Positions 1-62,666 of a stretch of DNA of 64,000 nucleotides are shown here, piece by piece. The notes under the pieces are model-generated. The model did no database searches and had not been told where the DNA came from. It saw only the letters and a list, made by a program, of their open reading frames with translations. Source of the DNA: Eukaryota sp. GEM-RC1 (lineage: Eukaryota); NCBI GenBank assembly GCA_040285855.1, contig JAUFOQ010000003.1:930001-994000 (forward strand), read 5' to 3'. Every line of letters starts with the position of its first letter. Position 1 is the first letter of the stretch. Made by a program: the position numbers and the translations under genes.

Positions 1-1633
1 AGCCAAACAAAAAAAGAAGGGACCAAGAGGATCTCCTTGTTTAACACCAGAAACAGAATTAAGAACAAATGAATTAAAAACTAAGTCAGAAGAGTGACCA
101 TAAAAACAATGAAAAAGGTACCTAATTCTGGAAAACTCTTTTCCAATTCAGAACAAATGGCAGATCGTTTAACAGAATTAAAAGCATTCTTAAAATCCAA
201 ATTGAAAATGCAATTATTTTCAACCGCATTGAAGAAAACATCAGAAGAAAGGGCAGCCACGGAAGCTCCATCAATGGTTTTAATACCATATTGATAAGGT
301 GAAAAGAAATCCTTGGCTTTGTTCGAAATTCTTTCAAAGACAACAGAAGCAAACAAACGGTAAATAGCTTCACCAACAGCAATAGGACGGATTTTCTTGT
401 TAGGCTTAATCAGTGCAACCAAACGAGAAGCAGACAACTCTTTTGGAGGAACAACCTTCGATAACAAAACATTGTTGAAAAAAGACATAAATCTTCAACA
501 ATAAGTGAATTTTGACGTGAAACAGATTTGAGCATATCAAAAGTAATACCTGAAGGTCCAGGAGCTTTTCCTGAAGGGAGTTTTAAAATACAACTCATCA
601 ACTCATCCACTCTAATGGGGTTTTCTTTCCAATACAAAGAAGGCATAGGCTTGACAGGAGAAAATTTTTCCAATGGATGAAGAGCCTGAAGTTGAGAAAC
701 AGTGTCCTCAGAAACAGGAGCAAGATCTGAAGAAAAAATGGCATTCTTAGCTGAACCATACCTACCTCGAAGAAGTTGTTGACGTACAACTTTATCCTTT
801 GGTAATTTCTTTGGAGCAAACACTTTCTTAGGGCGATTACAGGATTGAGATTGTTTCTCAAGAAAAAACTTCCAGATGTGAAGAACATCCCAAGAACCTA
901 GTGAAAGCGCTAGAGTAAAAGACCGAAAAGCAATAGAAAAAGGAATGGAGCCTTTGGGGCTGAGTTGATTTGGAATTTTCACAAAGGGTCGAAGAGTATC
1001 AACAGAGAGACAATCTCCACAAAACAAATAATTGTTTTTAATTAGGCAGGACGCCGAAACAGTTTTGCAAAAATTACATTCATTAAACTGACCAAATTTT
1101 GTAAAGGAATTATCAGAAAGAGGCTGAACGTTGTCTTCTGCCGTAACCTCAGAAGTGACAGCCAGACTGTCAACAACATTTGAGACTTCTGCAATGGCAG
1201 CTGATAGGGAATCAGGAATTTTAGGCAAATCAAAATTTGGACAAACTTTCTGATTTTTTCGGTGACCTAATTGACCACAAGAAGAACAGTTAGGTAGAGC
1301 TCTTTTTCGAATTTGCTGAGAAGCAGGGATCACAACTTCAGGAGAAGATTTGATGGAAGTAGAAGCAGCGTTAGACTCAGAAAAGACCTCAGAAGTAGAA
1401 GAAGTTTTAGAGGGAACAAAAGTGGGATTAGAAGAACAAAGAGGCAAAGAACTTGGCAACTCAACTGGACGTGAAGCTAGAACCTTATTGACAAGAGGGC
1501 TAACAGGAAATACAGACTGTGAAACACGAGACATAGAATCACCAGAAGAAGAAAGATGACTTACGGAAAGAGCAGAAGAGGGAGTCACAGAAGATTTACT
1601 GCTAACCAGAGAAATCCGAGTAAATGGACGCAC
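1..1633 (-). mobile_element. Non-LTR retrotransposon (RLE/CRE-like) ORF: zinc knuckle plus reverse transcriptase, running off the window start
   Basis: ORF 410-1633 has CSSCGQLGHRKNQKVC and KAPGPSGITFDML. After a frameshift near 480, ORF 81-488 has IRPIAVGEAIYRL, YQYGI and LDFKNAFNSV. Bases 1-60 read SGVKQGDPLGPFFF (RT motif B). Confidence 0.88.
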
Positions 1634-13060: not shown

Positions 13061-16000
13061 TTAACCTTCATAAGACCACGAGTCTGAAGTGCTAGATCTG
13101 GAGTATACCCCAGCACCATGTTGGCCATATACAGAATTAAATCCACCTGGTATAGATGAATCTTCCATTGAGACACCAGCACCAATTTCAACTCGAAGAA
13201 CTGGATTCTCTGCAAAATCATTCATCCCAAGACTTTGCAAGCTATTTGGAAACTTTAGTGACTCAATAGAGTTTTTCATAAATGCACCACCAGTAATTAC
13301 CTCAAGAGACGATCCAAAAGTCACAGTGGTAAGACTGTTCTCATGAAACGCAAGCATTCCAATAGTTATCAAACTGTCTGGGATAACTAACTCCTCAATA
13401 GCATTTTGGTCAAATGCCCAGTGTCCAATGGTTGTCAGTCCGTTTCCAAAAGAAACACTTACCAACTCTTTGTTGCTATCAAATGCATGTTGTCCTATGG
13501 TGAGAACTGTGTCCGGAATGACGACAGAAGATAATCTCCTGTGTTGGAAAGCAAGATCGCCAATTGCTTTAATTTCAACACCATTGATGCTAGATGGGAT
13601 TATTAGGTTTTGCTCGTATTCAGAAATAGTGTTATTGACCATAGTTAAACCATGTTGAATTAATGAAAACGACTCAGTCTTAGAACTGTCTAGTTGTACT
13701 GTAAGAGTTCGATCATAGTAATCAGAATGCATCAAAGTGAGTTCATAATCACCAGGAATCAGATCAGCAAGTAGAACGTAACCTTCCTCATTTCCATCAA
13801 CAATCAAATCTTGATTGAGCTGAACACGGGAATTGGAAATTGGTTCAGAAGTGAAATCGTCATAGATAAAATATTCCAACGAATACAAAGTAAGACTAAG
13901 AGAAACATCAATCGACTCGTCATTGTCAGACACTGTGACATTGACAGACTTTGTATCGTAGCCCGCAAGTTCAAAAGTGAGTTCATAAATCCCATTAACA
14001 AGCGGCTCAAGCTCAAAGTAGCCGTCAGCATTAGAGTAGACGTCATCAAAATCATCACCAGAGACAAGAACGTCAGCAAGTTCATCCGAATCAGTAGTGA
14101 TTGTTCCAGATACAACAAAGGTATTTAATGATAGAGAAACATCAATCGACTCGTCATTGTCAGACACTGTGACATTGACAGACTTTGTATCGTAGCCCGC
14201 AAGTTCAAAAGTGAGTTCATAAATCCCATTAACAAGCGGCTCAAGCTCAAAGTAGCCGTCAGCATTAGAGTAGACGTCATCAAAATCATCACCAGAGACA
14301 AGAACGTCAGCAAGTTCATCCGAATCAGTAGTGATTGTTCCAGATACAACAAAGGTATTTAATGATAGAGAAACATCAATCGACCTGTCACTGTCAGACA
14401 TTGTAACATTGACAAACTTTGTGTAGTAGCCCGCAAGTTCAAAAGTGAGTTCATAAATCCCATTAACAAGCGGCTCAAGCTCAAAGTAGCCGTCGGCATT
14501 AGAGTAGACGTCATCAAAATCATCACCAGAGACAAGAACGTCAGCAAGTTCAACCGAATCACAAGTGACTGTTCCAGATACAACAAAAGTATTTAATGAT
14601 AGAGAAACATCAATCGACTCGTCATTGTCAAACACTGTAACATTGACAGACTTTGTATCGTAGCCCGCAAGTTCAAAAGTGAGTTCATAAATCCCATTAA
14701 CAAGCGGCTCAAGCTCAAAGTAGCCGTCAGCATTAGAGTAGACGTCATCAAAACCATCACCAGAGACAAGAACGTCAGCAAGTTCAACTGAATCAGTAGT
14801 AACTGTTCCAGATACAACAAAGGTATTTAAGGACAAAGAAACATCAATCGACTCGTCATTGTCATACACTGTAACATTGACAGACTTTGTATCATAGCCC
14901 GCAAGTTCGAAAGTGAGTTCATAAATCCCATTAACAAGCGGCTCAAGCTCAAAGTAGCCGTCAGCATTAGAGTAGACGTCATCAAAATCATCACTATAGA
15001 CAAGAACGTCAGCAAGTTCAACCGAATCAGTAGTAACTGTTCCAGATACAACAAAGGTATTTAAGGACAGAGAAACAACAATTGATTCGTCTTTGTCAAA
15101 CACTGTAACATTGACAGACTTTGTATCATAGCCCGCAAGTTCGAAAGTGAGTTCATAAATTGCGTTAACAAGTGGCTCAAGCTCAAAGTATCCTTCAGCA
15201 TTAGAGTAGACGTCATCAAAATCATCACCAGAGACAAGAACGTCAGCAAGTTCAACTGAATCGCTAGTGACTGTTCCAGATACAACAAAGGTATTTAATG
15301 ATAGAGAAACAACAATTGATTCGTCTTTGTCAAACACTGTAACATTGACAGACTTTGTATCATAGCCCGCAAGTTCGAAAGTGAGTTCATAAATTGCGTT
15401 AACAAGTGGCTCAAGCTCAAAGTATCCTTCAGCATTAGAGTAGACGTCATCAAAACCATCACCAGAGACAAGAACGTCAGCAAGTTCAAGTCCAACCGAA
15501 TCACTAGTGACTGTTCCAGAAATAAGGAACGTCTTTGAAGTGGATGAACGTAAGAGTAGGAATAGCAGAGCAGCCAAGATTACAAGAATAAGACAAGTGG
15601 CAGCAGCATCTATAGCGGTATCTAGTTTACCCCTAAACTTCTTCTTCAACTGAGCAAAGGAGAAGAACGATATTCCACCTCAGGCTCTGCTTTAATAAAC
15701 AATACAACATCTTCAATAGATTCAGCCTTTGCATTTAGATCCTTGGTGTTTCTATCTAGTTTCTGACCATCCGAAGTAGTACAATGATTTGATTGAAGGA
15801 AAGTATCATTTTGGTCAAACCCATGTTCACAAGTAACAAAGGCTTTAGTGGAAGGATCAATTGTGATAGCTGGTTGGTGGATATCATTGATGAGAAGACA
15901 TTGAACTTTCAATTGAATGGGGTCAGTTGGAAGCTTTTCAGAGACTTTCTGTACATAGAGTGATAGTTGTTCCCTTGGATCTTGAGGAATGACATGGTTC

Positions 16001-18119: not shown

Positions 18120-20097
18120 TTAACCCTGAAAAGACCATGAACCTGAAGTACCAGTTCTGGAGTATACACCGGCGCCGTACTGGTTATAAACAGTGTTAAA
18201 TCCTCCTGGTATGGATGTTGAGACCATATCAACACCGTTACCGATTTCAACTCGTAGTACAGGATTAAGATGAAAAGCATAGAGTCGAAGTACTTGCAGA
18301 CTGTGTGGGAACACAATTGACTCAATAGAGTTGTGAGCAAATGCATAACCGGAAATGGATTGAATTGAGTTTCCAAAAGTCACAGATACCAGAGCATTGT
18401 ACATGAATGCATACATATCAATCAACACCACATTGTTAGGAAGTACTAATTCGACGATTCCATTTGATGTAAATGCGGACAATCCAATACTTGTAATCCC
18501 ACTTCCAAGAGTAACACTGCGCAAATAATGGTTAGAATTAAAAGCGTTTCGTGCAATAGTATGAACAGTGTCTGGAATAACGACAGCAGTTATTGACTGA
18601 TCTGAAATAGCATATTCACCAATTTCATTTACCTCAGCATCATTAATACTGGCTGGAATTATCAGGTTTACATCATAGGATGAAATTGTGTTTCCAGATA
18701 GAGTAAAAGGGTGTTGTCTTAATGAAAACGACTCAGTCTTAGAACTGTCTAGTTGTACTGTAAGAGTTCGATCATAGTAATCAGAATGCATCAAAGTGAG
18801 TTCATAATCACCAGGAATCAGATCAGCAAGTAGAACGTAACCTTCCTCATTTCCATCAACAATCGAATCTTGATTGAGCTGAACACGGGAATTGGGAACT
18901 GATTGAGATGTGAATTCATCATAGATATAAAGTTCTAATGAAACCAGTGTAAGATCAAGAGAAAGAACCAAAGACTCGTCACTGTCAGACACTGTAACAT
19001 TGAGATACTCTGTATCGTAGCCTGCAAGTTCGAAAGTGAGTTCATATATTCCATTATTAAGTGGCTCAAGTTCAAATAGACCTCCAGCATTGGAATAAAG
19101 ATCATTATCAGTATTAAAAACGTCTGAGCAGACGAGAGCACCCAAGATAACCAGAATAAGACACGTGGCAGCAGCAGCTATACCAGTATCTCGTTTACCC
19201 TTAAACTTCTTCTTCAACTGAGCAAAAGGAGAAGAACGATATTCCACCTCAGGCTCTGCTTTAATAAACAACACAACATCTTCAATAGATTCAGCCTTTG
19301 CATTTAAATCCTTGGTGATTCTATCTAGTTTCTGACCATCCGAAGTAGTACAATGATTTGATTGAAGGAGAGTATCATTTTGGTCAAACCCATGTTCACA
19401 AGTAACAAAGGCTTTAGTGGAAGGATCAATTGTGATAGCTGGTTGGTGGATATCATTGATGAGAAGACATTGAACTTTCAATTGAATGGGGTCAGTTGGA
19501 AGCTTTTCAGAGACTTTCTGTACATAGAGTGATAGTTGTTCCCTTGGATCTTGAGGAATGACATGGTTCAAGAATTGGAGGAGATTTTGATAGCCATTGA
19601 TTAACATTTTCAATTTGGTTACGTCCAACTTTTCTGATCCAGCAAGTCCAATTTCTTCAGCAATGTCGGACAAGTCCTGAGGAGAAACTCCGAATACTAC
19701 AGAGGAATATGTCTCAATGAAGAGACGGTAACATTGGTAGACAAATAGAGGATCGGTAACTTGGGCAAACTTCTGAGCAACTTCATCGTTGAAACCAATG
19801 TTCAATACTAATGTGAGATGAAGATCGAAAAATGACATACCAAGGTGATTACAAGGAGAAGCGTTGGTACTCAGGTTGACGGCAAGGGATAGAAAGTTTG
19901 CAGATAGGCATAACAGCTGTTCTGTTGTTTCTTCAAGGATTTGTACAAACTGGGTCAGTTCATGATTGGGACAACGATCCACCAGAGTACTTGAAAGGGG
20001 AAAAGAAGAGATCTGGAGTAAATGTGAACGTCATGACATCACATACTGGAAGCTCACAGAAGAATTGTGGGATCAAAAGGGAAAGTGGTTCATCCAT
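18120..20097 (-). CDS. PPDK-like/TM/repeat/LRR family, copy 2 (short stalk, TM partly deleted)
   Basis: ATG 20097; introns 20013-20046 and 19808-19840; near-identical to copy 1 over the PPDK-like part; different LRR tail. Confidence 0.8.
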
Positions 20098-36256: not shown

Positions 36257-36441
36257 GGTCTTGTTAATAGTCCGATTGGATTTCTGGTGTAGAGTCTACA
36301 CTGTAGACTGATTTGTAGTATTTTTTAATATTTATTGACATTGTCTATTGATTACTCAAAGGAATGTTGTTGCACATGGAGCGTACTATCACAGCAACTA
36401 AGTATGAGATTAAAAAAGTGGTTATAAATAGACTATAATGC

Positions 36442-36759
36442 TTAGCATTCCATTGGTGTAGATTCTAGTGCTTGAGAAAAGCGGTCCAGTACAACTGTCG
36501 TCATGTCTTTCAAAGTGGAAAGACCTCCTTGCATAACTTCTAGCGGAGGAACATTGTTTCGAGTTTGAATACGGAAGTTTAAGACAGGTTCAATAGGATG
36601 TGGTATACTGTAAGCGCAAAAGTCAACATCAGGACGCCGTGAGACGACATTTCGAAGAGCGTTTCCTATTGTGTGACTTTCGTCAGTGATTTTGAATGTA
36701 GCACATGAATGGTCTTCAGCATCATAAACAACACGGATTTTATCTAATGGAGACTCCAT
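36442..36759 (-). CDS. POLR1D: RNA polymerase I/III subunit RPAC2/AC19
   Basis: ATFKITDESHTIGNALR..VDFCAYSIPHP..NFRIQT. Confidence 0.9.
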   Translation of the reverse strand: MESPLDKIRVVYDAEDHSCATFKITDESHTIGNALRNVVSRRPDVDFCAYSIPHPIEPVLNFRIQTRNNVPPLEVMQGGLSTLKDMTTVVLDRFSQALESTPMEC

Positions 36760-36813
36760 TTTAGTGATAGTAAGGGAAAAGAAAACAGTTTCAATTTCTG
36801 TCTTAATCCCAAG

Positions 36814-37665
36814 TAGGATTGTAATTTTGAGTCAAGCTGACTCACTGAGCTTTGAGTCAGTCAGCTCGAGGCAGGCTCATTTGACTCATGAGTCGAGTCA
36901 AGCCTGTATCTTTGTCCGTGAGTCAGCTCGAGTCAGGCTCATTTGACTCATGAGTCGAGTCAAGCCTATATCTTTGTCCGTGAGTCAGCTCGAATCAGGC
37001 TCATTTGACTCATGAGTCGAGTCAAGCCTATGTTTCTGTCTGTGAGTCAGCTCTACTCAAGTTTACTCTAATGAATGTAATTTAGTACAATTTAAACGTA
37101 TTCTAGTACAATCACCTGTACATGGAATTAGTAGCAGTTCTCTGTATAAATTCATTGCATGTTGATGTGTGGGATGAGCTGACAGCTTACTTATCAACAG
37201 GCATAGTCGATGCTGCGGTGGATCCACTAGATTGGTGGAAACGCTACCAATCAGATTATACTAGCTCAGCTTGCTCAGCTCGCGACTACTTAAGCATTCG
37301 GCCAAGTTCAGCAGCAATTGAACGTTTGTTCTCTGCTGCAAACCAAATTGTAACAAAGGAAAGGGCTAGACTATCTGCAATACTGCAAGGTGTTTATTGT
37401 GTTTACACTCGTGGTACGGAATAGGTGTATTAAATTCAGATCAGTAGAAAACAGTAGAGATTTGTGTTATGTTATAAAGTACAATAGAAAAGAGCATTCA
37501 AAATGAGTCAGCTCGAGTCAAGCTCGGTTGACTCATGAGTCAAAGTCAAGTCAAAGGTAATCAAAATGAGTCAGCTCGAGTCAAGCTCGGTTGACTCATG
37601 AGTCAAAGTCAAGCTTCAAATTGTAGGCTTGACTCGACTTGACTCGGCTCATTTTAACAACCCTA
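36814..37665 (+). mobile_element. Internally deleted hAT element
   Basis: TIR TAGG(A/G)TTGT; 8-bp TSD ATCCCAAG (36806-36813, 37666-37673); ~62-bp subterminal repeats rich in GAGTC/GACTC; hAT dimerisation remnant DPLDWWK..ARDYLSIRPSSAAIERLFS (37122-37424). Confidence 0.95.
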
Positions 37666-37673
37666 ATCCCAAG

Positions 37674-37800
37674 ACCACCGGATCTTCAACCTGTGAATTT
37701 CTCTTAAGATGAATTCCCCATAACGAATTATGGACATTCATCTACACTCACAGTGCACATGGGCTGTGGCGGTTCTATCCCTTGCGGGTCCGCCACTGTT
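37674..37800 (-). ncRNA. Candidate Fanzor omegaRNA scaffold overlapping the ORF 3' end
   Basis: Minus strand: GUGGCGG-A-CCC-GCAA-GGG-AUAGAA-CCGCCAC, then nested stems CUGUGAGU/AUUCACAG, AGAUGAAU/AUUCAUCU and CCAUAA-UUCG-UUAUGG. Position matches known TnpB/Fanzor omegaRNAs. Confidence 0.7.
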
Positions 37801-40153
37801 TCTGTTATTGAATCTTCATTGTTGTTTGTACTCTTTGCTGCTCTCTTCCGTCTTTCTTCAGCTAACTTGTCAGAGAAACACATTGGTCGATCCTCACCAG
37901 CGAGAGTACACTCAACAATCTTTAGAATATTCAAACAGCTATTGAAGTCTCGATTCCAGAGTTTATGACATTTTTTACAACGCACTAAACCCCAACACTT
38001 GAGTTCATCGGGCTCTTCCTGCCACAACAGCTTATCATCTTCGTCCTTCCAACTAGACCAATTCCTCAGCGCTGATAGACGATTTGCCTTCTTGTCAACT
38101 CTTCGCTTCTTCTTCCGGAAGTTTGGATCCTTGACTTTAAGGAAGGTTTCCGTTTCCCCTTCGTCATCGTTGTTCTCAGAACATTCATGGCACTGAAGAG
38201 ATGTCCTGAATTCGTTAACCAGAAGAACCTGATAGCCAGCTTTTTTGAACAACTTTCTCGATCCTTTCCCCATGGATGGAGGCTTGTATTTCCTATGCCT
38301 TGACTGACTCCAATCACCTATGGCCAACCACGTGTTGGTTGGATCTCCGTAAACTTGACGGAATCGATGGAGCATTTTACGTTCACTTTTTTCCTTGTAT
38401 ACTGATTTCCAATAGCTCCATTTGCGCCATTTAGATTGATGGTACAGAGACTCCATTCTATTTGCATACTTGTAGAATTGTTGGACGTACGCTTTGAATT
38501 TTGAAAAATTTGTTGTTTTGGAAGTAAATTCTGAAAATTCTGTCTGAATCTGTTCAGCTGTCAGTTGTCTTCCCGAAATTTCGTTAAAAGAATAGTTTTT
38601 GAAGGCTTGGTTCTGAAATACATTGTATTTTTTTTGTTTTCCTTCGTGCCTTCGAGTTCCTTGAGTATATCTCATTTTTTGAATTGATTTTTCTTTTGAA
38701 ATGGTCTCTTTTTACTTGATTTTTTGACCTCATTATTCTCTTTTTGGAACTGGGCTTTATGCCTTTTAATTTCTTTCAATCTCTTCTTTTCATATGTTTT
38801 TGAGATTTTTGGGTCAAGTGGGGAGCACAATGCCCAGGATTATCAATTTCTTCCTGGGTTTTTCTTCCAACCAAGTACAGAATATCCCATTGGTTAGGGT
38901 CCCCCACCACGACTTTTTTTATTTTTTAAATCCTCTAATTTTTCAGGATGTAAATCTTCCACATACTCCTCTTTTTCCTCCGGAGACTTGGCAGAGTATG
39001 GTTTGAACAGTAGATCATTTCTGGTCATCATGAGACTGATGGATTCACCATTGGTGGTTATCTGGTGACCAAATGAATACATCTTTTGAAGGTGTTCAAG
39101 TATTTGTGATCAAGATTCAAATACTGGCTCCAAATTTGATTTTTAAATAAATTAATGTTTTCGCTCAGATGTGTTAGATTATAACCTTGAACTTGAGGTT
39201 TAAATAATTTAATCATAGCCATCGTATCCAATCGAAGGTGATCAGGGATTAGGCTGGTGGATTGTGGAAACATACGGTACATCTTTGGTGGAATCTCATT
39301 ACAGGAAGGGTTATTCTCAATCAATTTGTTGAGAACGAAGGCCTCTGGTAAGAGCTCCAAAGGCTTTACCTTTAATTGGTATTTGAGTCCTTTAGAGTCT
39401 GGCTTAAAGCTTTTGACAAATGTAATGAAATTTTGATGTTCATCTGATGGATTTGCCAGATCTCGGTAAAATCAATATTGGATCCTCTGCCTTCTAAAAT
39501 TTCTTTAAGGATATTATTGTACAACTTTTGCAACTGGTCTTTTTCGACTTTTTTAAGTGCATTGTTTTTAATAATTTTTAGTTGTCCATTTAAATTAAAG
39601 AAGAGTTCCCATGTTTTTCCAAATATTCAATAAAATGGGATGAAATATTATTTTGATACATTGTAACAATCTCAGTAGCTGTGTAACTTAATGTACGAGA
39701 CATATCAGAGTACATGACATTGGGAATTTCCATATTCATGGGGAGAAGATGTTGGATATAGAAGCATCCCAATTGAATTTTCAAAGCATTGTGCTTTTTG
39801 CCTGGAGTACTTTGAACAATCTCAGTTACCCATTTAAGTATTTCACTTCCATCAATATTTTCCTCATTTTTAAATCTTTGATGAGCTAATGGAGACAAGT
39901 ATCCAATAGTCCAGAGCAATTGGTGGACACTTTCTTTGGTCCATTCTACCGGATTCAATTCCTGGTTATCAAAAGAGTTCATGCAAAAGCCTTGAAGTAG
40001 CAGCAATGCACGTTGTTTAATTCGGTGATGATTTATAGAAATTTCATTAACCAATAAGTTATTATCACTCCAAACAGATTTTAGGGTTACTTTAACCGTT
40101 TTTTCACCCGGGCATTTCAGCAATTCTTGTGTTTCGACTTGAAGGAAATACAC
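37728..40153 (-). CDS. Fanzor1 (TnpB-family RNA-guided endonuclease), frameshift-split
   Basis: KTVKVTLKSV; IVTMYQNNISSHF; YQLKVKPLELLP; FPQSTSLIPDHLRLDT; YSFGHQITTNGESISL; RuvC-I VVVGDPN (D at 38899-38901); IGDWS..MGKGSRKLFKKAGY; RuvC-II VNEFRTS; zinc finger CHEC..CKKC; RuvC-III WNRDFNSCLNI. Confidence 0.93.
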
Positions 40154-41648
40154 AAAAGGCTTTGTAATTCAACAATATCGTTAAAATGTTCACGTAAACA
40201 TTTCAAGTTTTGTTCAGATGTGAAATCTGTAGAAACTGGTGTGGGAACTGAATAACTTTCATTTTTTAAAATGTTCTTTACAACAGTAACCCAATTCAAA
40301 GATTTTCCAGTTCTAGGTCTGTAATAATTTCTAATAACACGACCCAAATCTATTAGCTGAATTTTTGAGTTTTTGAATTGTTTTAAAAAATATTTGTAAA
40401 AGAGAGGACACTGAATATTTGAACAATTCTCTGATTTTAAATTAAATTCATCCAACGTAGAACTTGCATCATAACCAATTATCAGACCACAGTCAGTTAA
40501 ATCTAAATAATCATTAAACGCACTAATCATAGATTCCTCTTGATTAAACGCTTGAACATTCACTCTAGCATGCTCAGAATTAGGTGACAGAACTGAATCG
40601 CAACTTTGTTGTGTAGTGAATATAATTGATTCTACAATTGAAATTACTTGGTCCTGTACCTGAACTGTTTGAGTGATAATTGATGTGATTATTTTTTTCT
40701 CTTTTTCCTTTTCAGTTTCTTTAGTAGCTGCTGAAGCTTCAATCATTTTTACAAAAATGCACTTAATCGAGTGTTTGTGATCTAACATTAAGGTTACGTT
40801 TTCGAAAGGATCTTTTCTTTTTTTAGACTTAACTGGTGATTCTTTTTCGTTTGTTTTTTCATTTGTTTTTACTGCCAATGGGCATTTTCTTATATCATGA
40901 CCAGTGTTTCTACACTTTGAACATTTACGCCCAATTTGTTTTTTCACCAGTTGGGGTTCGTTTTCATTATTATTGTTTGATCGTTTTTGTTTTCTTGGAG
41001 GCATATTGCTGACAGTGGCAAGCCTTTTTCCTGGATTAACGTGGCTGTCCAGTTTTAAGTTCAATCTGATACGAAATTGAGAGGGATCAAATTGATGATG
41101 CATAATTTCATTTTGAAAATCTGTCATCATTATACAGTGATCAATGTGACCAATTGTTTCAACGTTAAATGTCTTGAATAAAACTTCAATAAAATACAGA
41201 ACAAATATGCCACAATCATAACCATTGTCCTGTTTCACAGAATTAATGTGACAATGGTAAAAGTTGTTTGGGCAAAACGATTGTATAAAATCAATTTTTG
41301 AGGACAACAAATTACTATTAGAGATAGAATCCATGAAGTATAACGTTTCAGTCATGAAATCCATAACACATAGTCCCCAGTGAGTTCCAGCAAATCCGTC
41401 AATAATACCATTGTTCATGAGAATAAGAACAAGCCGACAATCTGCATTTTTTTCTCTTATATCATGATAAATAACGTCTTTCTCTAACGTTAGAAAGTTA
41501 AATAAATGATAAAATCCAATAGCTTGATTGGCGAGTGGGTAATCCAAACTGATATTATTTATGGAAAAAGAAGATGGAATAGCTCTAACCATTCACATTC
41601 AGACAACAATGTTATGTCTTCAAATTCATGTGAGTTAAATGATACCGG
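40117..41648 (-). CDS. Ulp1/SENP-family (C48) cysteine protease domain, CCHC zinc knuckle and linker; probably N-terminal part of the Fanzor polyprotein
   Basis: DITLL..EWL, GTHWGLCVMD, YFMDS, KQDNGYDCGIFVL (H-D-Q-C residues); CSKCRNTGHDIRKC at 40882-40923. Confidence 0.85.
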
Positions 41649-41710
41649 TCCGGGATTCGACTCGATATCACCATCTTTGGTTAAATCTTTAACAAACAAA
41701 TCAATCAAAC
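41646..41710 (-). other. 2A-like ribosomal skipping (StopGo) sequence
   Basis: LIDLFVKDLTKDGDIESNPGP is an exact match to D(V/I)ExNPG|P; core at 41646-41669. Confidence 0.85.
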
Positions 41711-41894
41711 AAAGTTTGAAATTGTGTTTATTCTCCAAATCAAAAGTGAATTGCTTTTGTCGAGTTTTACAACAAGACACGGACCACTGCGGTATTAACT
41801 CATCAGGAGTTGCAGATATCAAGCTATAAGCCTCTTCTCTGCAACTGCCCTGAGTTGTTAATCCTGGGTTAGGGCCGTAGTCCCCACCCAAATT

Positions 41895-42082
41895 CATAAC
41901 TGAAAAGACGGAACTTTCAGTCTCAACTGGATACAAAACATCCAGCCGAGGAGGATTGGAACCTCTTATTGTGTGAGGAGGGTCGGAACCTCCTGAACAC
42001 ATAACTGAAAGGACGGAACTTTCAGTCTCAACTGGATACAAAACATCCAGCCGAGGAGAATTGGAACCTCTTATTGTGTGAG
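41895..42082 (-). repeat. Two 83-bp direct repeats (105-bp period) built of hairpins
   Basis: 41895-41977 and 42000-42082 differ at two positions; stems CUCGGCUGGAUG/UAUCCAGUUGAG, CUGAAAG/YUUUCAG and GAGG/YCUC. Confidence 0.9.
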
Positions 42083-42231
42083 ACATCAACAAACCTGATG
42101 GAGTCATGAGACGGAAATAAGTCACTGTCGACATTGTTATTGATTGTTCATCACTTTCCTCTCAGCAGGATTCCGTTCATAAGGGATTTTGATTTTGCCA
42201 ACAGTTTTCTTTTCACTTTTTTCTGCTACTG

Positions 42232-42660
42232 ATGCAGCTTTCTCAGGTATCAGCGTCTTGCTAGTCCTAACACGCTTTGATTGACTTACTTTCTTTCTTG
42301 AAGGTGTTCGCTATATCTGCACTGACTGGTGCTACAAGTCTTATTGCTGTCTTCTATGCTGCTGTTAGATTTAAGGAATACGAGCTTCTTCTCATTCTGG
42401 CTTTTGGAATTCTTTCCCCATTTGCTGAACTTGTCTGCAAGGACGACAATAGCTTCGACTCTTCTTCAGGTCTAGAAATCATGGGTAAGTTCCTTACTGC
42501 TGCGTTGTGTAGAAGTGGTTTATGTCTTCCTATAATGCTATTCCACAGTGACATAATAGCCACCATCCCTTTAACTATTGCTTTAAGCGGCGCTATGCTT
42601 TTCTACTCCTCGGTATTCATTTTTGTTGAGAAAGTTGCTCCTGACAACGACTCCTTTTAG
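42232..42660 (+). CDS. Vps55/LEPROT-family small membrane protein
   Basis: ATG 42232; intron 42247-42303 (GTATCA..CTAAC..AAG); four TMs; GKFLTAALCRSGLCLPIMLFHSDII. Confidence 0.78.
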
Positions 42661-45307: not shown

Positions 45308-47795
45308 ATGGACCAATCAAGTATTGCTCACTTCCTCTATGAGCTGCGAGTTTGTAACATCATGACGCTCTCTCTTACTTCAGAATCCTCCAGTCCCTCT
45401 TTCTCAAACCCCAGACCAGCGTAAGCCCAGTGACGATCTGAACAAACTGGTTCAAATCCTTGAAACAACAACAGGACAACAGTTAGGCCCATCGGAGAAC
45501 TTTCTATTCCTTACCGTCAACCAGAGTACTATCACTTCTACATGTAATCACATTGGTATGTCATTTTTCGATCTTCATCTCACACTAGTACTGAACATTG
45601 GTTTCAACGATGAAGTTGCCCAAAAGCTGGCCCTCGTTACTGATCCTCTATATGTCTACCAATGTTACTGTCTCTTCATTGAGACTTATTCCTTCGTAGT
45701 ATTCGGAGTTTCTCCTCAGGACTTGTCCGATGTTGCTGAAGAAATTGGACTTGCTGGATCAGAAAAGTTGGACGTAACAAAATTGAAAATGTTAATCAAT
45801 GGCTATCAAAACCTCCTCCAATTCTTGAACCATGTCATTCCTCAAGATCCTAGAGAACAACTATCACTCTATGTACAGAAAGTCTCTGAAAAGCTTCCAA
45901 CTGACCCCATTCAATTGAAAGTTCAATGTCTTCTCATCAATGATATCCACCAACGAGCTCTCACGATTGAGCCTTCCACTAAATCCTTTGTTACTTGTGA
46001 ACATGGGTTTGACCAAAATGATGCTCTCGTTCAATCAATTCATGGTACTACTTCTGATGGTCAGAAACTAGATAGAATCACCAAAGATTTAAATGCAAAG
46101 GCTGAATCTAGTGAAGATGTTGTATTGTTTCTTAATGCTGATGCAATAGAATATCGTTCTTCGCCTTTTGCTCAGTTCAAGAAGACGTTTAAGGGTAAAC
46201 GAGATACTGGTATAGCTGCTGCTGCCACGTGCCTTATTCTGGTTATCTTGGGTGTACTGCTATTCCTACTCTTACGTTCATCCACTTCAAAGACTTTCCT
46301 TGTGTTTGGAACAGTCACTGGTGATTCAGTTGCTCTTCCAGGTGTTCTTGTCTCTGGTGATGGTTTAGATGACGTATACACTACTGAGGATGGCTTTTTT
46401 AGACTTCAGCCACTTGCCAATGGTGACTACGAATTATCCTTCGAACTCGTAGGTTATGTTCTTAAGTCAGTCAGTGTTACAGTGTCTGACAATGATAAGA
46501 CTGTTGATGTTTCTCTTTCCTTACATACCTTTGTTGTATCTGGAACAATCACTAGTGATTCCGTTGAACTTGCTGACGTTCTTGTCTCTGGTGATGGTTT
46601 TGATGACGTCTACTCTAATGCTGAAGGCTACTTTGAGCTTGAGCCACTTATTAATGGAATTTATGAACTCACTTTCGAACTTGCGGGCTACGACTCAAAG
46701 TCTGTCAATGTTACAGTGTCTGGCAGTGACGAGTCGATTGATGTTTCTCTTGATCTGCCTTCACTTCAACTTTATATATACGACGATCTCACTTCTGAAC
46801 CAATTCCCAATCCTAGTGTTAAGCTCAATCAAGATTTGATTGTTGATGGAGATGAGGACGGTTACGTCATCATTGCTGATTTAATTCCTGGTGATTATGA
46901 GCTCATTTTGATGCATTCTGATTATTATAATCGAACTCTTCATGTAGAAGTACAATTTTCCAAGATTCAATCTTTGTCATTGACTCGTCATGGATTTACT
47001 ATTGTTGGTGCCACTATTACCGCTTATGATGCTTCTGTAGGTATATCAGTATCTATTCCGGCATATGTCAATGGAGTTGAGATTACTGGAATTGGACCTT
47101 ATGCTTTCGCTTTTAAGAACTTAATTGCTGTTTCTTTTGCAGACAATATTTATTCTATCGGAATGTTTGCTTTTGCAGGCAACAACATTGACAGTCTTCA
47201 TTTTGGAAATGGATTAACAATCATTGGTCAAGATGCTTTCTCTACTAACTATGAACTAACAACAGTGGTTTTTGGTAATTCTCTCACTACTATTGGTTCT
47301 AATGCATTTACTTACACTTCTATCTCATCCATTGTCATACCAGACAGTGTCACGACCATCCATTTTACTGCTTTTTATTACAGTAACCTATCTTCTGTGA
47401 TTCTATCTGAGTCTCTTACTGAAATTAGTAAGGGGGTGTTTATAGGTAACGAATTAACAAGTATCACCATACCATCTTCAGTTACCAAAATAGGTGATTC
47501 AGCATTTCAAAATAATAAGTTGTCGTCAGTTGAATTTGGAAATTCTGTACAATTGATTGATGTTCAAGCTTTTTATCACAACTTGTTAGAGTCGCTGAAG
47601 TTTCCGGACAGCTTGGAACGAATTAATTCGGAGGCTTTTGCAAATAATCCACTGTTATCTGTTGAGATTGGTGATGACGTGACATCACTGGATGATTCAG
47701 CTATACCAGGAAATTTTAAATCTGAATATATTCAGACAGGGGCTGGCGTTTACTCTAGATCAAGTACCTCAGACGACTTTGCTTTTGAGGATTGA
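45308..47795 (+). CDS. PPDK-like/TM/repeat/LRR family, copy 3 (2+1 repeats, longer LRR)
   Basis: ATG 45308; introns 45350-45383 and 45556-45588; same domain order as copies 1 and 2. Confidence 0.82.
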
Positions 47796-51360: not shown

Positions 51361-53208
51361 TCAATCTGTCATAATCCCACCTCCAAAAGGATACTCACCA
51401 TACTCAGGCCCCCATCTAAAGTCCTTCTTAGGATCAGTACCTTCAACAATCAACAAAGAATGCTCCAACACCTCCATTGCCTTGTTATTCATAAAGGGAG
51501 GTCTGGGAGCAAGTACTAGGTTTGATACCCCCGCACTGACCATTGCAAGTACTGCTGATAGGCATTGCTCTGAATGGTATAGACATAATGTCTTAATGAT
51601 AGAACTGTCGCTTATATCAGTTCCAAGAGACTTCGCAATTGAGGCAAGCGCACGAATACTAGAATCAATCGAGCTGTAATCACCACCATCAATGATCTTT
51701 GGCAACTTTCCTATAAAACGATCTCTAAACATCGTCAACAATGGCAATCTAACCGGGCCTAATGCTAATACGTACCAAGAAGACGGCAACGAGTCTATTA
51801 ACAAAGACAGATACTCACTTTCAGGTCCTGAAGAAGCAGCTTCACCAAAAACAAACAGAATATGAGAATCTGTATTAACAATGGTATTGATGAGTTCTGG
51901 TAGAATTCCACTTATAGAGATAACAGAAACCAATGACGAAACACGAGGCTTCAACAAGTTAGTTTCAGTCCTCACGGTAGGGGATGGGCTCATATGAGGG
52001 GTATAGTGTTTAGCAGCAAGCACCATTGGTTCCAGATCGATGAACCCTGTTGACGTCAGCAGGGGTCGATTAGCTCCTGGACAACTCGTCTCGTTGACAC
52101 AGTAGAGTGGAGGGTGTTCAATGAGAGGAAGGTTAGGTGGGGTGGGAGAAGAGGTGGTGACGACGACTCCACATACTGTAGTTAAGAGAGGAAGTACACG
52201 TGAATCACCCAGGTTAGCAAGTAAATGGCCCTTGAGAGCAGCGTATTGTCTAAAGTAACGATGACGATGTACTGACAGCAACTCCCCTGCAGTCACAACA
52301 TCAAGGTCGTTCTGATCAGCAAGTTTTAACACAGTATGAAGATCAGAGAAGTCATTCCCTCCAACCACAATAGTGTTTCTCCTGAGTACTACAGTTGGAT
52401 CAATCAGGGGAACGTGGAAAACTACCTGGTCTTTGTGGGTAACTGCATCAATAGCTGTGGAACCAAACCGACGATCAATTGTTTCTTCAAGACTAGCAAA
52501 TGCTCTTCGAAGTGCAGCACTTGTTTGATGTAACAAACGGATCATGTGAGATTCCTTCTCAGTAGCTAAGGCTTGAGGTAAGTCACTGAGGACACGTAGG
52601 TTAGCGTGGATGCTGTGAGTGGCGGCTGAAGAGTTACCAAGACGCATTAATCTTAGGGCTGTTGAAGCAAGGTAACGGTTAGAGAACAAGAGAAGATCGT
52701 AGAGAGGACCAATGGCTCCTTTGTTCATCACGTAGGTTGCTGGTTTAACAGATTTTCCAGTAGCCACAGCAGTTGTCATTGAGGAGACGTCTGGATCCCA
52801 ATTCATGTTAATGTATTGAGTGTTGGCGGAGAAAGGAATTCCTCTGGTATAGTGAGCATTTTTAACAGAATCGAACACGGTTTTGAGAGCAGCAAGATGA
52901 TCGAAGGCAAAGGAAGGATCAAAGGAGGCATCGGTGAGTTGAATGGCTTGACAGTTGAGAAAGGGTATGGCAAAACTATCAGAGATGAATGAATCTTCCC
53001 TTAAGAATTGGATGAGAAGAACAGATGTTGAAAGAATACCAACTTCTAGTGAATCAAAGAGTGCTTGTAGGTTGGAATCTTTACCACAAGTGCCAATGGA
53101 ATCGCAGCAAGCTCTACCAACCTGTAGTTGACGGGCGCGACTACATTGATGGCAGAACATTTGAAGATTAGGATTCTCACGATATAACACTTCAATATCG
53201 GTGCTCAT
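51361..53208 (-). CDS. Divergent hybrid cluster protein (HCP/prismane) homologue
   Basis: MFCHQC..CCDSIGTCGK N-terminal Fe-S motif; colinear degenerate motifs IVVGGND, VVTAGELL, LPKIIDGG and HSEQ..AVLAMVSAGVSNLVLAP. Confidence 0.8.
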   Translation of the reverse strand: MSTDIEVLYRENPNLQMFCHQCSRARQLQVGRACCDSIGTCGKDSNLQALFDSLEVGILSTSVLLIQFLREDSFISDSFAIPFLNCQAIQLTDASFDPSFAFDHLAALKTVFDSVKNAHYTRGIPFSANTQYINMNWDPDVSSMTTAVATGKSVKPATYVMNKGAIGPLYDLLLFSNRYLASTALRLMRLGNSSAATHSIHANLRVLSDLPQALATEKESHMIRLLHQTSAALRRAFASLEETIDRRFGSTAIDAVTHKDQVVFHVPLIDPTVVLRRNTIVVGGNDFSDLHTVLKLADQNDLDVVTAGELLSVHRHRYFRQYAALKGHLLANLGDSRVLPLLTTVCGVVVTTSSPTPPNLPLIEHPPLYCVNETSCPGANRPLLTSTGFIDLEPMVLAAKHYTPHMSPSPTVRTETNLLKPRVSSLVSVISISGILPELINTIVNTDSHILFVFGEAASSGPESEYLSLLIDSLPSSWYVLALGPVRLPLLTMFRDRFIGKLPKIIDGGDYSSIDSSIRALASIAKSLGTDISDSSIIKTLCLYHSEQCLSAVLAMVSAGVSNLVLAPRPPFMNNKAMEVLEHSLLIVEGTDPKKDFRWGPEYGEYPFGGGIMTD

Positions 53209-61576: not shown

Positions 61577-62666
61577 GATATCTGCTTGAGATCGTAGTTC
61601 AAAAACAGACATCTCTCCCATTCGCATAATCACTACCAATGACCACCACCCATGACGTTATACCGTGTGAATCCCAATCTTCAAATGTTCTGCCATCAAT
61701 GTAGTCGCGCCCGTCAACTACAGGTTGGTAGAGCTTGTTGCGATTCCATTGGCACTTGTGGTAAAGATTCCAACCTACAAGCACTCTTTGATTCACTAGA
61801 AGTTGGTATTCTTTCAACATCTGTTCTTCTCATCCAATTCTTAAGGGAAGATTCATTCATCTCTGATAGTTTTGCCATACCCTTTCTCAACTGTCAAGCC
61901 ATTCAACTCACCGATGCCTCCTTTGATCCTTCCTTTGCCTTCGATCATCTTGCTGCTCTCAAAACCGTGTTCGATTCTGTTAAAAATGCTCACTATACCA
62001 GAGGAATTCCTTTCTCCGCCAACACTCAATACATTAACATGAATTGGGATCCAGACGTCTCCTCAATGACAACTGCTGTGGCTACTGGAAAATCTGTTAA
62101 ACCAGCAACCTACGTGATGAACAAAGGAGCCATTGGTCCTCTCTACGATCTTCTCTTGTTCTCTAACCGTTACCTTGCTTCAACAGCCCTAAGATTAATG
62201 CGTCTTGGTAACTCTTCAGCCGCCACTCACAGCATCCACGCTAACCTACGTGTCCTCAGTGACTTACCTCAAGCCTTAGCTACTGAGAAGGAATCTCACT
62301 TGATCCGTTTGTTACATCAAACAAGTGCTGCACTTCGAAGAGCTTTTGCTAGTCTTGAAGAAACAATTGATCGTAGATTTGGCTCCACAGCTATTGATGC
62401 AGTTACCCACAAAGACCAGGTAGTTTTCCACGTTCCCCTGATTGATCCAACTGTAGTACTCAGGAGAAACACTATTGTGGTTGGAGGAAATGACTTCTCT
62501 GATCTTCATACTGTGTTAAAACTTGCTGATCAGAACGACCTTGATGTTGTGACTGCAGGGGGAGTTGCTGTCAGTACATCGTCATCGTTACTTTAGACAA
62601 TACGCTGCTCTCAAGGGTCATTTACTTGCTAACCTGGGTGATTCCCGTGTACTTCCACTCTTAACT
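61577..62666 (+). pseudogene. Inverted partial duplicate of the HCP-like gene (upstream region plus first ~340 codons)
   Basis: Near-identical to the reverse complement of ~52180-53270; homology stops abruptly at ~62666. Confidence 0.9.

Follow-up and report, generated by a model that had tools for sequence, protein, structure and literature searches.

A hairpin-rich, probably translated leader before a 2A motif and a Fanzor gene in Eukaryota sp. GEM-RC1: a possible sense-strand RNA module

We analyzed a 64,000-nucleotide stretch of DNA from Eukaryota sp. GEM-RC1 (contig JAUFOQ010000003.1 of assembly GCA_040285855.1, positions 930,001 to 994,000; hereafter the window, in which position 1 is the first letter), and within it the 5' end of a minus-strand mobile element that encodes a Fanzor nuclease. 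The reading that we favor, and hold only tentatively, is that the Fanzor gene is preceded by a 2A (StopGo) motif and, before that, by a translated, disposable leader that may carry a sense-strand RNA module composed of an in-frame 105-nt hairpin repeat and two further stems. Fanzor proteins are RNA-guided nucleases of eukaryotes, and little is known about their expression in their native hosts. Were the leader a functional module of RNA or DNA, we would learn from it how a mobile element that has hardly any sequence upstream can ensure that it is expressed, and the "shared 5' hallmark plus 2A" design of trypanosome retrotransposons would gain a second, independent example. Should it be no more than a young palindromic minisatellite, the finding would be an ordinary one.

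Results and Discussion

A tandem array of hairpins on the minus strand

The leader contains a minus-strand tandem repeat at 41895-42096, called by Tandem Repeats Finder with a period of 105, 1.9 copies and 89% matches; a separate repeat search of the window paired 41865-41969 with 41970-42074. The near-identical core of the repeat is 83 nt long (42082-42000 against 41977-41895, minus strand), and its copies differ at exactly two sites, T42059/C41954 and C42011/T41906, both of which folding places on the 3' side of a loop-closing pair, where G-C is exchanged for G.U. Within the array are five G-closed 7-nt loops that begin with UUCC, namely UUCCAAU and UUCCGUC (two each) and UUCCGAC. The array and the hairpins are as follows.

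41895..42082, minus strand: tandem array, two 83-nt copies with a period of 105 and the H4 spacer between them
42056..42070, minus strand: H1a, 4-bp stem GAGG/UUCCAAU/UCUC, loop UUCCAAU, closing pair G.U
42027..42055, minus strand: H2a, 12-bp stem with three G.U pairs, loop UUUUG
42004..42026, minus strand: H3a, 8-bp stem, loop UUCCGUC
41976..41994, minus strand: H4, 6-bp stem, loop UUCCGAC
41951..41965, minus strand: H1b, 4-bp stem, loop UUCCAAU, closing pair G-C
41922..41950, minus strand: H2b, second copy, 12-bp stem
41899..41921, minus strand: H3b, 8-bp stem, loop UUCCGUC, closing pair G.U
41865..41890, minus strand: H5, G+C-rich hairpin
41791..41864, minus strand: H6, 74-nt hairpin of four helices (-30.1 kcal/mol) that includes AGUUGCAGA/UCUGCAACU

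H2a is more stable on the minus strand, at -15.3 kcal/mol, than on the plus strand, at -8.3 kcal/mol, and H4 is extended to 42001-41970 by an outer 5-bp UGUGU/ACACA helix. An earlier description of this DNA, made from its letters alone (the original prediction), had reported five UUCC loops opened by G together with two 12-bp stems containing G-U pairs, G-C to G-U changes at loop-closing pairs as the sole two differences between the 83-bp copies, and further stems beyond the array. The loops and stems are all present where they were claimed, sequence and folds agree on the two differences, and the further stems correspond to H5 and H6 in the folded structure.

Folding strength and strand bias

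The 371-nt stretch that spans these hairpins folds far better on the minus strand (-137.2 kcal/mol, z -7.39, none of 100 shuffles reaching it) than on the plus strand (-119.0 kcal/mol, z -4.38), and the 149 nt upstream of the array (42231-42083) are unremarkable (z -0.31). A single repeat unit shows the same bias, with z -4.65 on the minus strand against -2.86 on the plus strand; because one unit is already so strongly folded, the structure is not owed to the duplication. When windows of 150 nt on either strand of the 64 kb (2,556 in all) were ranked by folding with a correction for composition, 41801-41950 on the minus strand came third, and the only place above it was 37501-37650, on both strands, which belongs to a hAT-like repeat block.

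The strand difference obtained with RNA parameters is nearly gone with DNA parameters (-62.1 against -59.8 kcal/mol). That both strands fold alike as DNA agrees with a rival explanation, in which the leader is a DNA-level cis element, made of subterminal repeats or internal promoter monomers, the GTTCCR palindromes are protein-binding sites, and the hairpins simply follow from the palindromy. The array begins approximately 50-150 bp from the 5' end of the element, the number of its units differs between copies (2, 2.7 or 3), which is also seen in 5' monomer arrays, no place in the window is comparably structured apart from the subterminal repeats of the hAT-like element, and Pr77, the trypanosome sequence discussed below, is reported to be a promoter as well as an RNA. 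GTTCCR occurs five times in 41909-42062, against a background of 0.32 per 350 bp, and all five occurrences are on the minus strand in the same orientation; at the other end of the element it is absent (one occurrence at 38745, none in 37640-38000). No terminal inverted repeat joins the two ends, the one 19-nt match of 89% lying outside the likely limits. The transposase-binding form of this explanation is weakened by the restriction of GTTCCR to the 5' end and a single orientation, and by the failure of the repeat searches to find a terminal inverted repeat. Promoter monomers would be untranslated and have promoter activity, and the units here lie within an open reading frame (ORF). In addition, the three G.U pairs of H2 and a G-C to U.G change in a paralog (see below) are asymmetric in duplex DNA. 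On balance we consider a DNA-level element somewhat unlikely.

We also considered whether the leader could belong, as its terminal inverted repeat, to a larger element that bears a polymerase, and rejected this candidate: there is no inverted copy in the 64 kb, and host genes flank the 4.5-kb element.

The array lies within an ORF that leads into a 2A motif

The original prediction had called the region a structured 5' leader. The structure is there; the array is not an untranslated leader, since it belongs to an ORF whose frame continues into a 2A motif.

41559..42134, minus strand: leader ORF, with ATG at 42134-42132, 35-residue tandem repeats, conserved core, 2A motif, and stop at 41561-41559
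41646..41669, minus strand: 2A (StopGo) core DIESNPGP, directly preceded by LFVKDLTKDG

The order within the ORF is 35-residue repeat units, the H5/H6 region, and then LFVKDLTKDGDIESNPGP, which holds the 2A/StopGo motif. DIESNPGP fits the pattern D(V/I)ExNPGP and is in frame with the ORF that starts at 42134, and the same residues are present in all six of the other 2A-type proteins encoded by paralogous loci. The claim that the 105-nt period keeps the frame open into the 2A was borne out, the frame being open from the ATG at 42134 to the core at 41669-41646. Copies differ in length by 105, 27 or 9 nt, each a multiple of three. Because a 2A motif needs an in-frame ORF upstream and the insertions and deletions preserve the frame, we infer that the leader is translated. 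Two short upstream ORFs (9 and 4 codons; 42181-42137, minus strand) lie immediately before the leader ATG, and a 10-bp inverted repeat, AUGAACGGAA / UUCCGU(C)UCAU, flanks the start codon.

The repeats and the core might instead act as protein, for example as a disordered interaction or targeting domain, with the RNA structure incidental. The frame that stays open across the length differences and the invariance of the core residues would be expected of such a protein. On the other side, AlphaFold2 gave the leader a mean predicted local distance difference test score (pLDDT) of 35 from a shallow alignment of 11 rows, with no predicted fold and with helices confined to residues 137-153, immediately ahead of the 2A motif, and 179-189; the model suggests that the leader peptide does not fold by itself. 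No Pfam family matched the peptide. In a search of 1.84 billion representatives the leader matched proteins outside Eukaryota sp. GEM-RC1 at the 2A region only, and the matching sequences were long proteins aligned in two to four separate stretches; of these proteins, P0013 and P0019 each contain several sites of the type DLTxDGDVExNPGP. Furthermore, copies that read the same DNA in other frames conserve it. A role as protein is, in our view, very unlikely.

Paralogs differ in repeat number and in what follows the leader

For comparison we used nine paralogous proteins of Eukaryota sp. GEM-RC1, P0001 to P0009, with P0010 as the product of the window itself. At least seven loci, the window among them, have the leader and 2A as a predicted protein, the six paralogs being P0001, P0002, P0006, P0007, P0008 and P0009. 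The comparison of repeat number among copies that the original prediction had proposed could be carried out on these proteins and gave 2, 2.7 or 3 units: two in the window, P0002 and P0006, three in P0001 and P0008, and three minus 27 nt in P0007. As in monomer arrays, then, tandem units stand at the 5' end of the element in varying number, and the H1-H4 array is a young expansion. Beyond the array, the H5 residues LGGDYGPNPG are identical in all nine paralogs.

In P0003 and P0005 the leader core is followed by a different protein in place of the 2A and the Ulp1-type protease that otherwise come next. The downstream part of P0003 contains an exonuclease domain of the DEDD/PolB type (Pfam DNA_pol_B_exo1, 1.5e-05); a search of the ESM Atlas with its C-terminal part returned only sub-threshold exonuclease leads, with scores of at most 0.87. 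Because two diverged copies share the junction between leader and exonuclease, it is not a one-off error of a gene model. P0005, which begins with MSTV directly before DLGG, need not be a copy without an array, since its MSTV may correspond to the SEV/SVM residues in a diverged H3 arm, as placed by tblastn.

P0004 is a truncated, frame-shifted copy, and both it and P0009 contain exact translations of the H2/H3 DNA of the window, in the two other reading frames; the nucleotides are retained even in copies whose leader frame is disrupted. Longer proteins that include the leader were searched for and none was found, exact-pattern scans with the H2-H3 stretch found 0 loci in metagenome contigs and 0 in viral contigs, and blastn against a phage collection gave no match. 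A full-text search found no literature that names Eukaryota sp. GEM-RC1.

Some substitutions keep the stems and others do not

Among the near-identical 2A-type copies, the repeat unit has nine variable sites, of which three keep a pair, one breaks a pair and five fall in loops or linkers. All three pair-keeping sites are C-to-U changes opposite G, and the single break affects the terminal pair of H2. Measured against all possible non-synonymous changes, the probability of one break or fewer is 0.03-0.17, depending on the transition bias assumed, and is not significant. The two G-C to G.U differences between the copies in the window, which had been put forward as a sign of selection, carry no statistical weight alone, and this family-wide test does not lend them any.

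The two diverged lineages are more informative. In the H3 segment of P0003 seven of 11 residues have changed and the stem survives: a Ser to Gly change (GGN) and a Leu/Phe to Pro change (CCN) force the pair 41915/41905 from A-U to G-C. The loop in this copy must read N-UUY-AUH, so UUCC has been lost there and the loop motif is not conserved across lineages. P0005 has seven residue changes in the 37 codons of H5-H6. Two of these, Cys to Phe and Ala to Gly, hit both partners of the pair 41842/41812 and, by parsimony, convert it from G-C to U.G; one more change keeps its pair, four are unpaired, and no pair is left broken. Zero net broken pairs were obtained in 0.3-1.3% of simulations with random non-synonymous changes (P 0.003-0.013). 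From these residue changes it is likely that a few stems have been kept by selection, H3 and H5-H6 being the ones that show signs of it.

Several observations weigh against a selected sense-strand RNA. Paralog nucleotides were inferred from amino acids, so that synonymous changes are invisible. A compensated double change arises by chance in approximately 5% of simulations. P0004 breaks three inner pairs (41863/41792, 41849/41807 and 41915/41905), the outer pair 41921/41899 is lost in both P0004 and P0003, and the second unit of P0003 is without any 12-bp H2 stem. H5-H6 folds equally well on either strand (z -5.31 on the minus strand, -5.21 on the plus strand), and the leader matches no Rfam family at gathering score. 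Variation within the family is indistinguishable from random and is as neutral decay after insertion would give. The array may be dispensable, because it is young (two differences in 83 nt) and variable in copy number. Finally, the window copy looks dead, with three frameshifts that split the N-terminal part of the Fanzor.

Much of this would be expected if the leader had no function at all and were a young, in-frame minisatellite in a decaying ORF, palindrome-rich by descent, whose pair-keeping changes are chance C-to-T transitions. The near identity of the two repeat copies, the random pattern within the family, the broken stems of P0004, the frameshifts of the window copy and the missing H2 stem of P0003 all accord with this. 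It does not account for the strength of the single unit, whose structure does not come from duplication, for two independent double changes at paired positions in two diverged lineages together with the absence of net breaks in P0005 (P approximately 0.01), or for the core DLGGDYGPNPGLTTQGSCREEAYSLISATPDELIPQWSVSC, which is 100% identical in P0003 though its flanks have diverged. We regard a leader without function as unlikely.

The original prediction of a selected RNA structure is thus upheld in part, by the paired double changes of P0003 and P0005, and in part not, since variation within the family fits random change. Random disruption of stems among the copies would have told against it; what was found is a family pattern that cannot be distinguished from random, with pair-keeping changes in P0003 and P0005 and pair-breaking ones in P0004.

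tRNA-like, RNA polymerase III and ribozyme signals

The 7-nt loops had suggested a tRNA mimic with T-loops, or degenerate B boxes of RNA polymerase III (Pol III), either of which might recruit tRNA-binding or tRNA-modifying factors or TFIIIC. The loops are closed by G and start with UUC, H4 with its outer helix resembles an acceptor/T-arm minihelix, and GGTTCCAATCC agrees with the B-box consensus at 10 of 11 positions (GGTTCCGACCC at 9 of 11). The B-box consensus is GGTTCGANNCC, preceded by an A box at a distance of 30-60 bp; upstream of the B-box-like sequence, inspection by eye showed no convincing A box. GGTTCCNNNCC occurs three times in the window, twice within the array, where 0.63 occurrences are expected. 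The T-loop consensus is U-U-C-purine-A, and the loops depart from it, position 4 being C in five of five and position 5 being A in two and G in three; position 5 is moreover polymorphic for A/G among the paralogs (N/D, V/I), and the P0003 loop has lost UUCC with its stem kept. H1 and the Asn variants of H4 fit GUUCNANNC, a putative pseudouridine-synthase motif.

ARAGORN called 0 tRNA genes in the whole window. The Rfam/Infernal search that had been proposed as a check yielded nothing at gathering score in 36400-42400, and at E values up to 10 (in 2 kb and in 481 nt) it gave no tRNA, tRNA-like or ribozyme family and only chance-level matches to small nucleolar RNA (snoRNA), microRNA and CRISPR-repeat models. 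Self-cleaving ribozymes were not among these matches, although such ribozymes are hard to find by sequence. The two best of the matches were rejected as chance: a plus-strand match to an archaeal C/D snoRNA model (22.6 bits, 45 needed) and one to a nematode H/ACA model (21.3 bits, 35 needed). The T-loop reading has against it the ARAGORN and Rfam results, the bases at loop positions 4 and 5 and the loss of UUCC in P0003, and the B-box reading comes down to one 10/11 match to the consensus, with no A box by eye. We consider a T-arm mimic or B-box array highly unlikely.

The Fanzor element and its surroundings

The element lies between a gene for an Rpb11-like protein (36445-36831, minus strand) and one for a Vps55-like protein (from 42271, plus strand, with a candidate first exon starting at 42232). 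Because these host genes bracket it, the element is approximately 4.5 kb long and has at most approximately 97 bp upstream of the leader ATG, its 5' end having to fall between 42134 and 42232. From 42134 to 37728 on the minus strand, leader, 2A, Ulp1-type protease, CCHC knuckle and Fanzor follow one another in one reading direction, and they possibly form one polyprotein.

41549..41589, minus strand: putative GT..AG intron of 41 nt, predicted from the sequence, that would connect the leader and Ulp1 frames
41155..41451, minus strand: Ulp1-type cysteine protease (Peptidase_C48; Pfam E 2.7e-08, 34.3 bits, cut-off 20.7)
40882..40923, minus strand: CCHC zinc knuckle CSKCRNTGHDIRKC, read from the translation, no Pfam hit reported
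39061..40530, minus strand: middle part of the gene, which P0011 has as an uninterrupted protein of 491 residues
37728..38711, minus strand: C-terminal part of Fanzor/TnpB, with RuvC motifs and the zinc-ribbon TNB domain (Pfam and PDB sequence search)

The putative intron has against it that the models of the six 2A-type paralogs stop in the 41549-41589 region instead. The protease ORF also has the His and Cys motifs of the family, HWGL (residue 71) and DCGI (residue 126). The C-terminal third of the Ulp1/CCHC ORF is continuous with the ORFs at 40168-39061 in the genomic copy P0011, which was the sole match in the search with the second-ORF protein and which links the Ulp1/CCHC ORF to the N-terminal part of the Fanzor. 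Relative to P0011, the window copy has three 1-nt deletions in runs of T or A, near 40155, 39616 and 39460, which reflect either decay of the window copy or assembly errors. The Fanzor itself is identified by its RuvC motifs and TNB domain (Pfam Cas12f1-like_TNB 1.2e-07, 32.2 bits, cut-off 26.3) and by phmmer matches in the PDB to SpuFz1 (8gkh, 1.3e-11) and PpFz1 (9cf0, 5.5e-11). Full-text searches for a link of Fanzor with a 2A or with Ulp1 gave no description of a Fanzor gene preceded by a 2A and Ulp1; judged by titles and abstract openings, the papers returned concern tools and methods.

A stable, multi-hairpin RNA beside a Fanzor gene might be taken for the guide-RNA scaffold (omega RNA) of the nuclease. 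Known Fanzor guide RNAs are located at or beyond the 3' end of the ORF, beside the right end of the element (PMC10432273, PMC10530073). Here the hairpins are found near the 5' end, within the ORF, and what comes after them is coding sequence instead of the flanking target DNA that would supply a guide. By position, then, the array is not the Fanzor guide RNA, because known guide RNAs lie at the 3' end, and we consider this explanation extremely improbable. A candidate omega RNA is a separate structured stretch across the Fanzor stop codon (37830-37640, minus strand; two hairpins, z -2.71), in the position that the known scaffolds occupy.

The 3' end of the Fanzor is adjoined by a non-autonomous, hAT-like element (36821-37660), which contains the most structured DNA of the window. 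Near each of its ends are subterminal tandem repeats of 62 bp with many GAGTCA palindromes, and it retains a remnant hAT dimerisation domain (37107-37424, plus strand; Pfam 1.6e-12). Elsewhere in the window are three surface-protein-like paralogs with BspA-type leucine-rich repeats and CarboxypepD_reg (13064-15679 and 18123-20030 on the minus strand, 45366-47792 on the plus strand), the first of which carries seven 234-bp tandem repeats. A 905-nt inverted duplication (52284-53188 / 61657-62561, 99% complementary) overlaps ORFs for Prismane, the hybrid-cluster protein, and at the very edge of the window is part of a reverse transcriptase (RVT_1, 2.2e-08; 84-494, minus strand).

How a disposable leader might act

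In the explanation that we prefer, the leader peptide would be shed at the 2A site with release of the nuclease polyprotein, and the leader, being disposable, would be free to carry a nucleic-acid module. If the peptide has no fold of its own, it would therefore be the nucleic acid, and not the peptide, that is constrained; and because the G.U pairs and the G-C to U.G change work only on the sense strand, the constraint would lie on that strand. The stems may then act as a portable 5' expression module, most likely as sense-strand RNA. The weakest step is what such a module would do: with at most approximately 97 bp of the element upstream of the ATG, it might control the start of translation, or the stability or processing of the transcript. 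Alternatively, it could act as an internal promoter at the DNA level.

A bolder form of this explanation would have the first approximately 480 nt of the ORF, freed by the 2A, serve as a portable, structured 5' hallmark in the manner of Pr77, common to a Fanzor polyprotein gene and an unrelated exonuclease element of a deep-branching protist, giving expression that is independent of the insertion site; this would be the first StopGo-polyprotein Fanzor. We consider this form doubtful.

Comparison with known systems

Cellular and viral 2A/StopGo peptides share with this element the DxExNPGP motif and an upstream helix, and proteins with multiple 2A sites share the wider DLTxDGD(V/I)ExNPGP context; unlike in these, the 2A here precedes a Ulp1-CCHC-Fanzor protein. 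The T arm of tRNA and the Pol III B box are similar in the G-closed 7-nt UUC loop and the one 10/11 match to the B-box consensus. Unlike a tRNA, the array has no cloverleaf and no covariance-model match, and the loop motif is lost in P0003. The omega RNA of Fanzor and TnpB is likewise a structured RNA encoded by the nuclease's own element; it is 3', by the right end, with a guide taken from the flank, whereas the array is 5' and within coding sequence. The 5' monomers of mouse L1 are approximately 200 bp long and untranslated. They resemble the units here in being tandem, 5' and variable in number among copies; the units here differ in being 105 nt long, translated in frame and strongly self-complementary.

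By analogy, the closest counterpart appears to be the Pr77 hallmark and 2A of the trypanosome L1Tc elements. The 2A sequence of L1Tc is near its N-terminus. As in the Eukaryota sp. GEM-RC1 leader, a conserved 5'-terminal module is present at the start of elements of different families. According to three reports, the 77-nt Pr77 lies at the 5' end of L1Tc, is common to several element families, and is both an internal promoter and a ribozyme resembling that of hepatitis delta virus (PMC3383444, PMC1874656, PMC4035085); the term "2A self-cleaving" occurs in a further report (PMC5814959). Unlike Pr77, the module described here consists of approximately 300 nt of simple hairpins inside an ORF, is partly a tandem repeat, and matches no ribozyme family at E values up to 10; and unlike the L1Tc/ingi non-long-terminal-repeat retrotransposons, its element encodes a Fanzor nuclease and not a reverse transcriptase.

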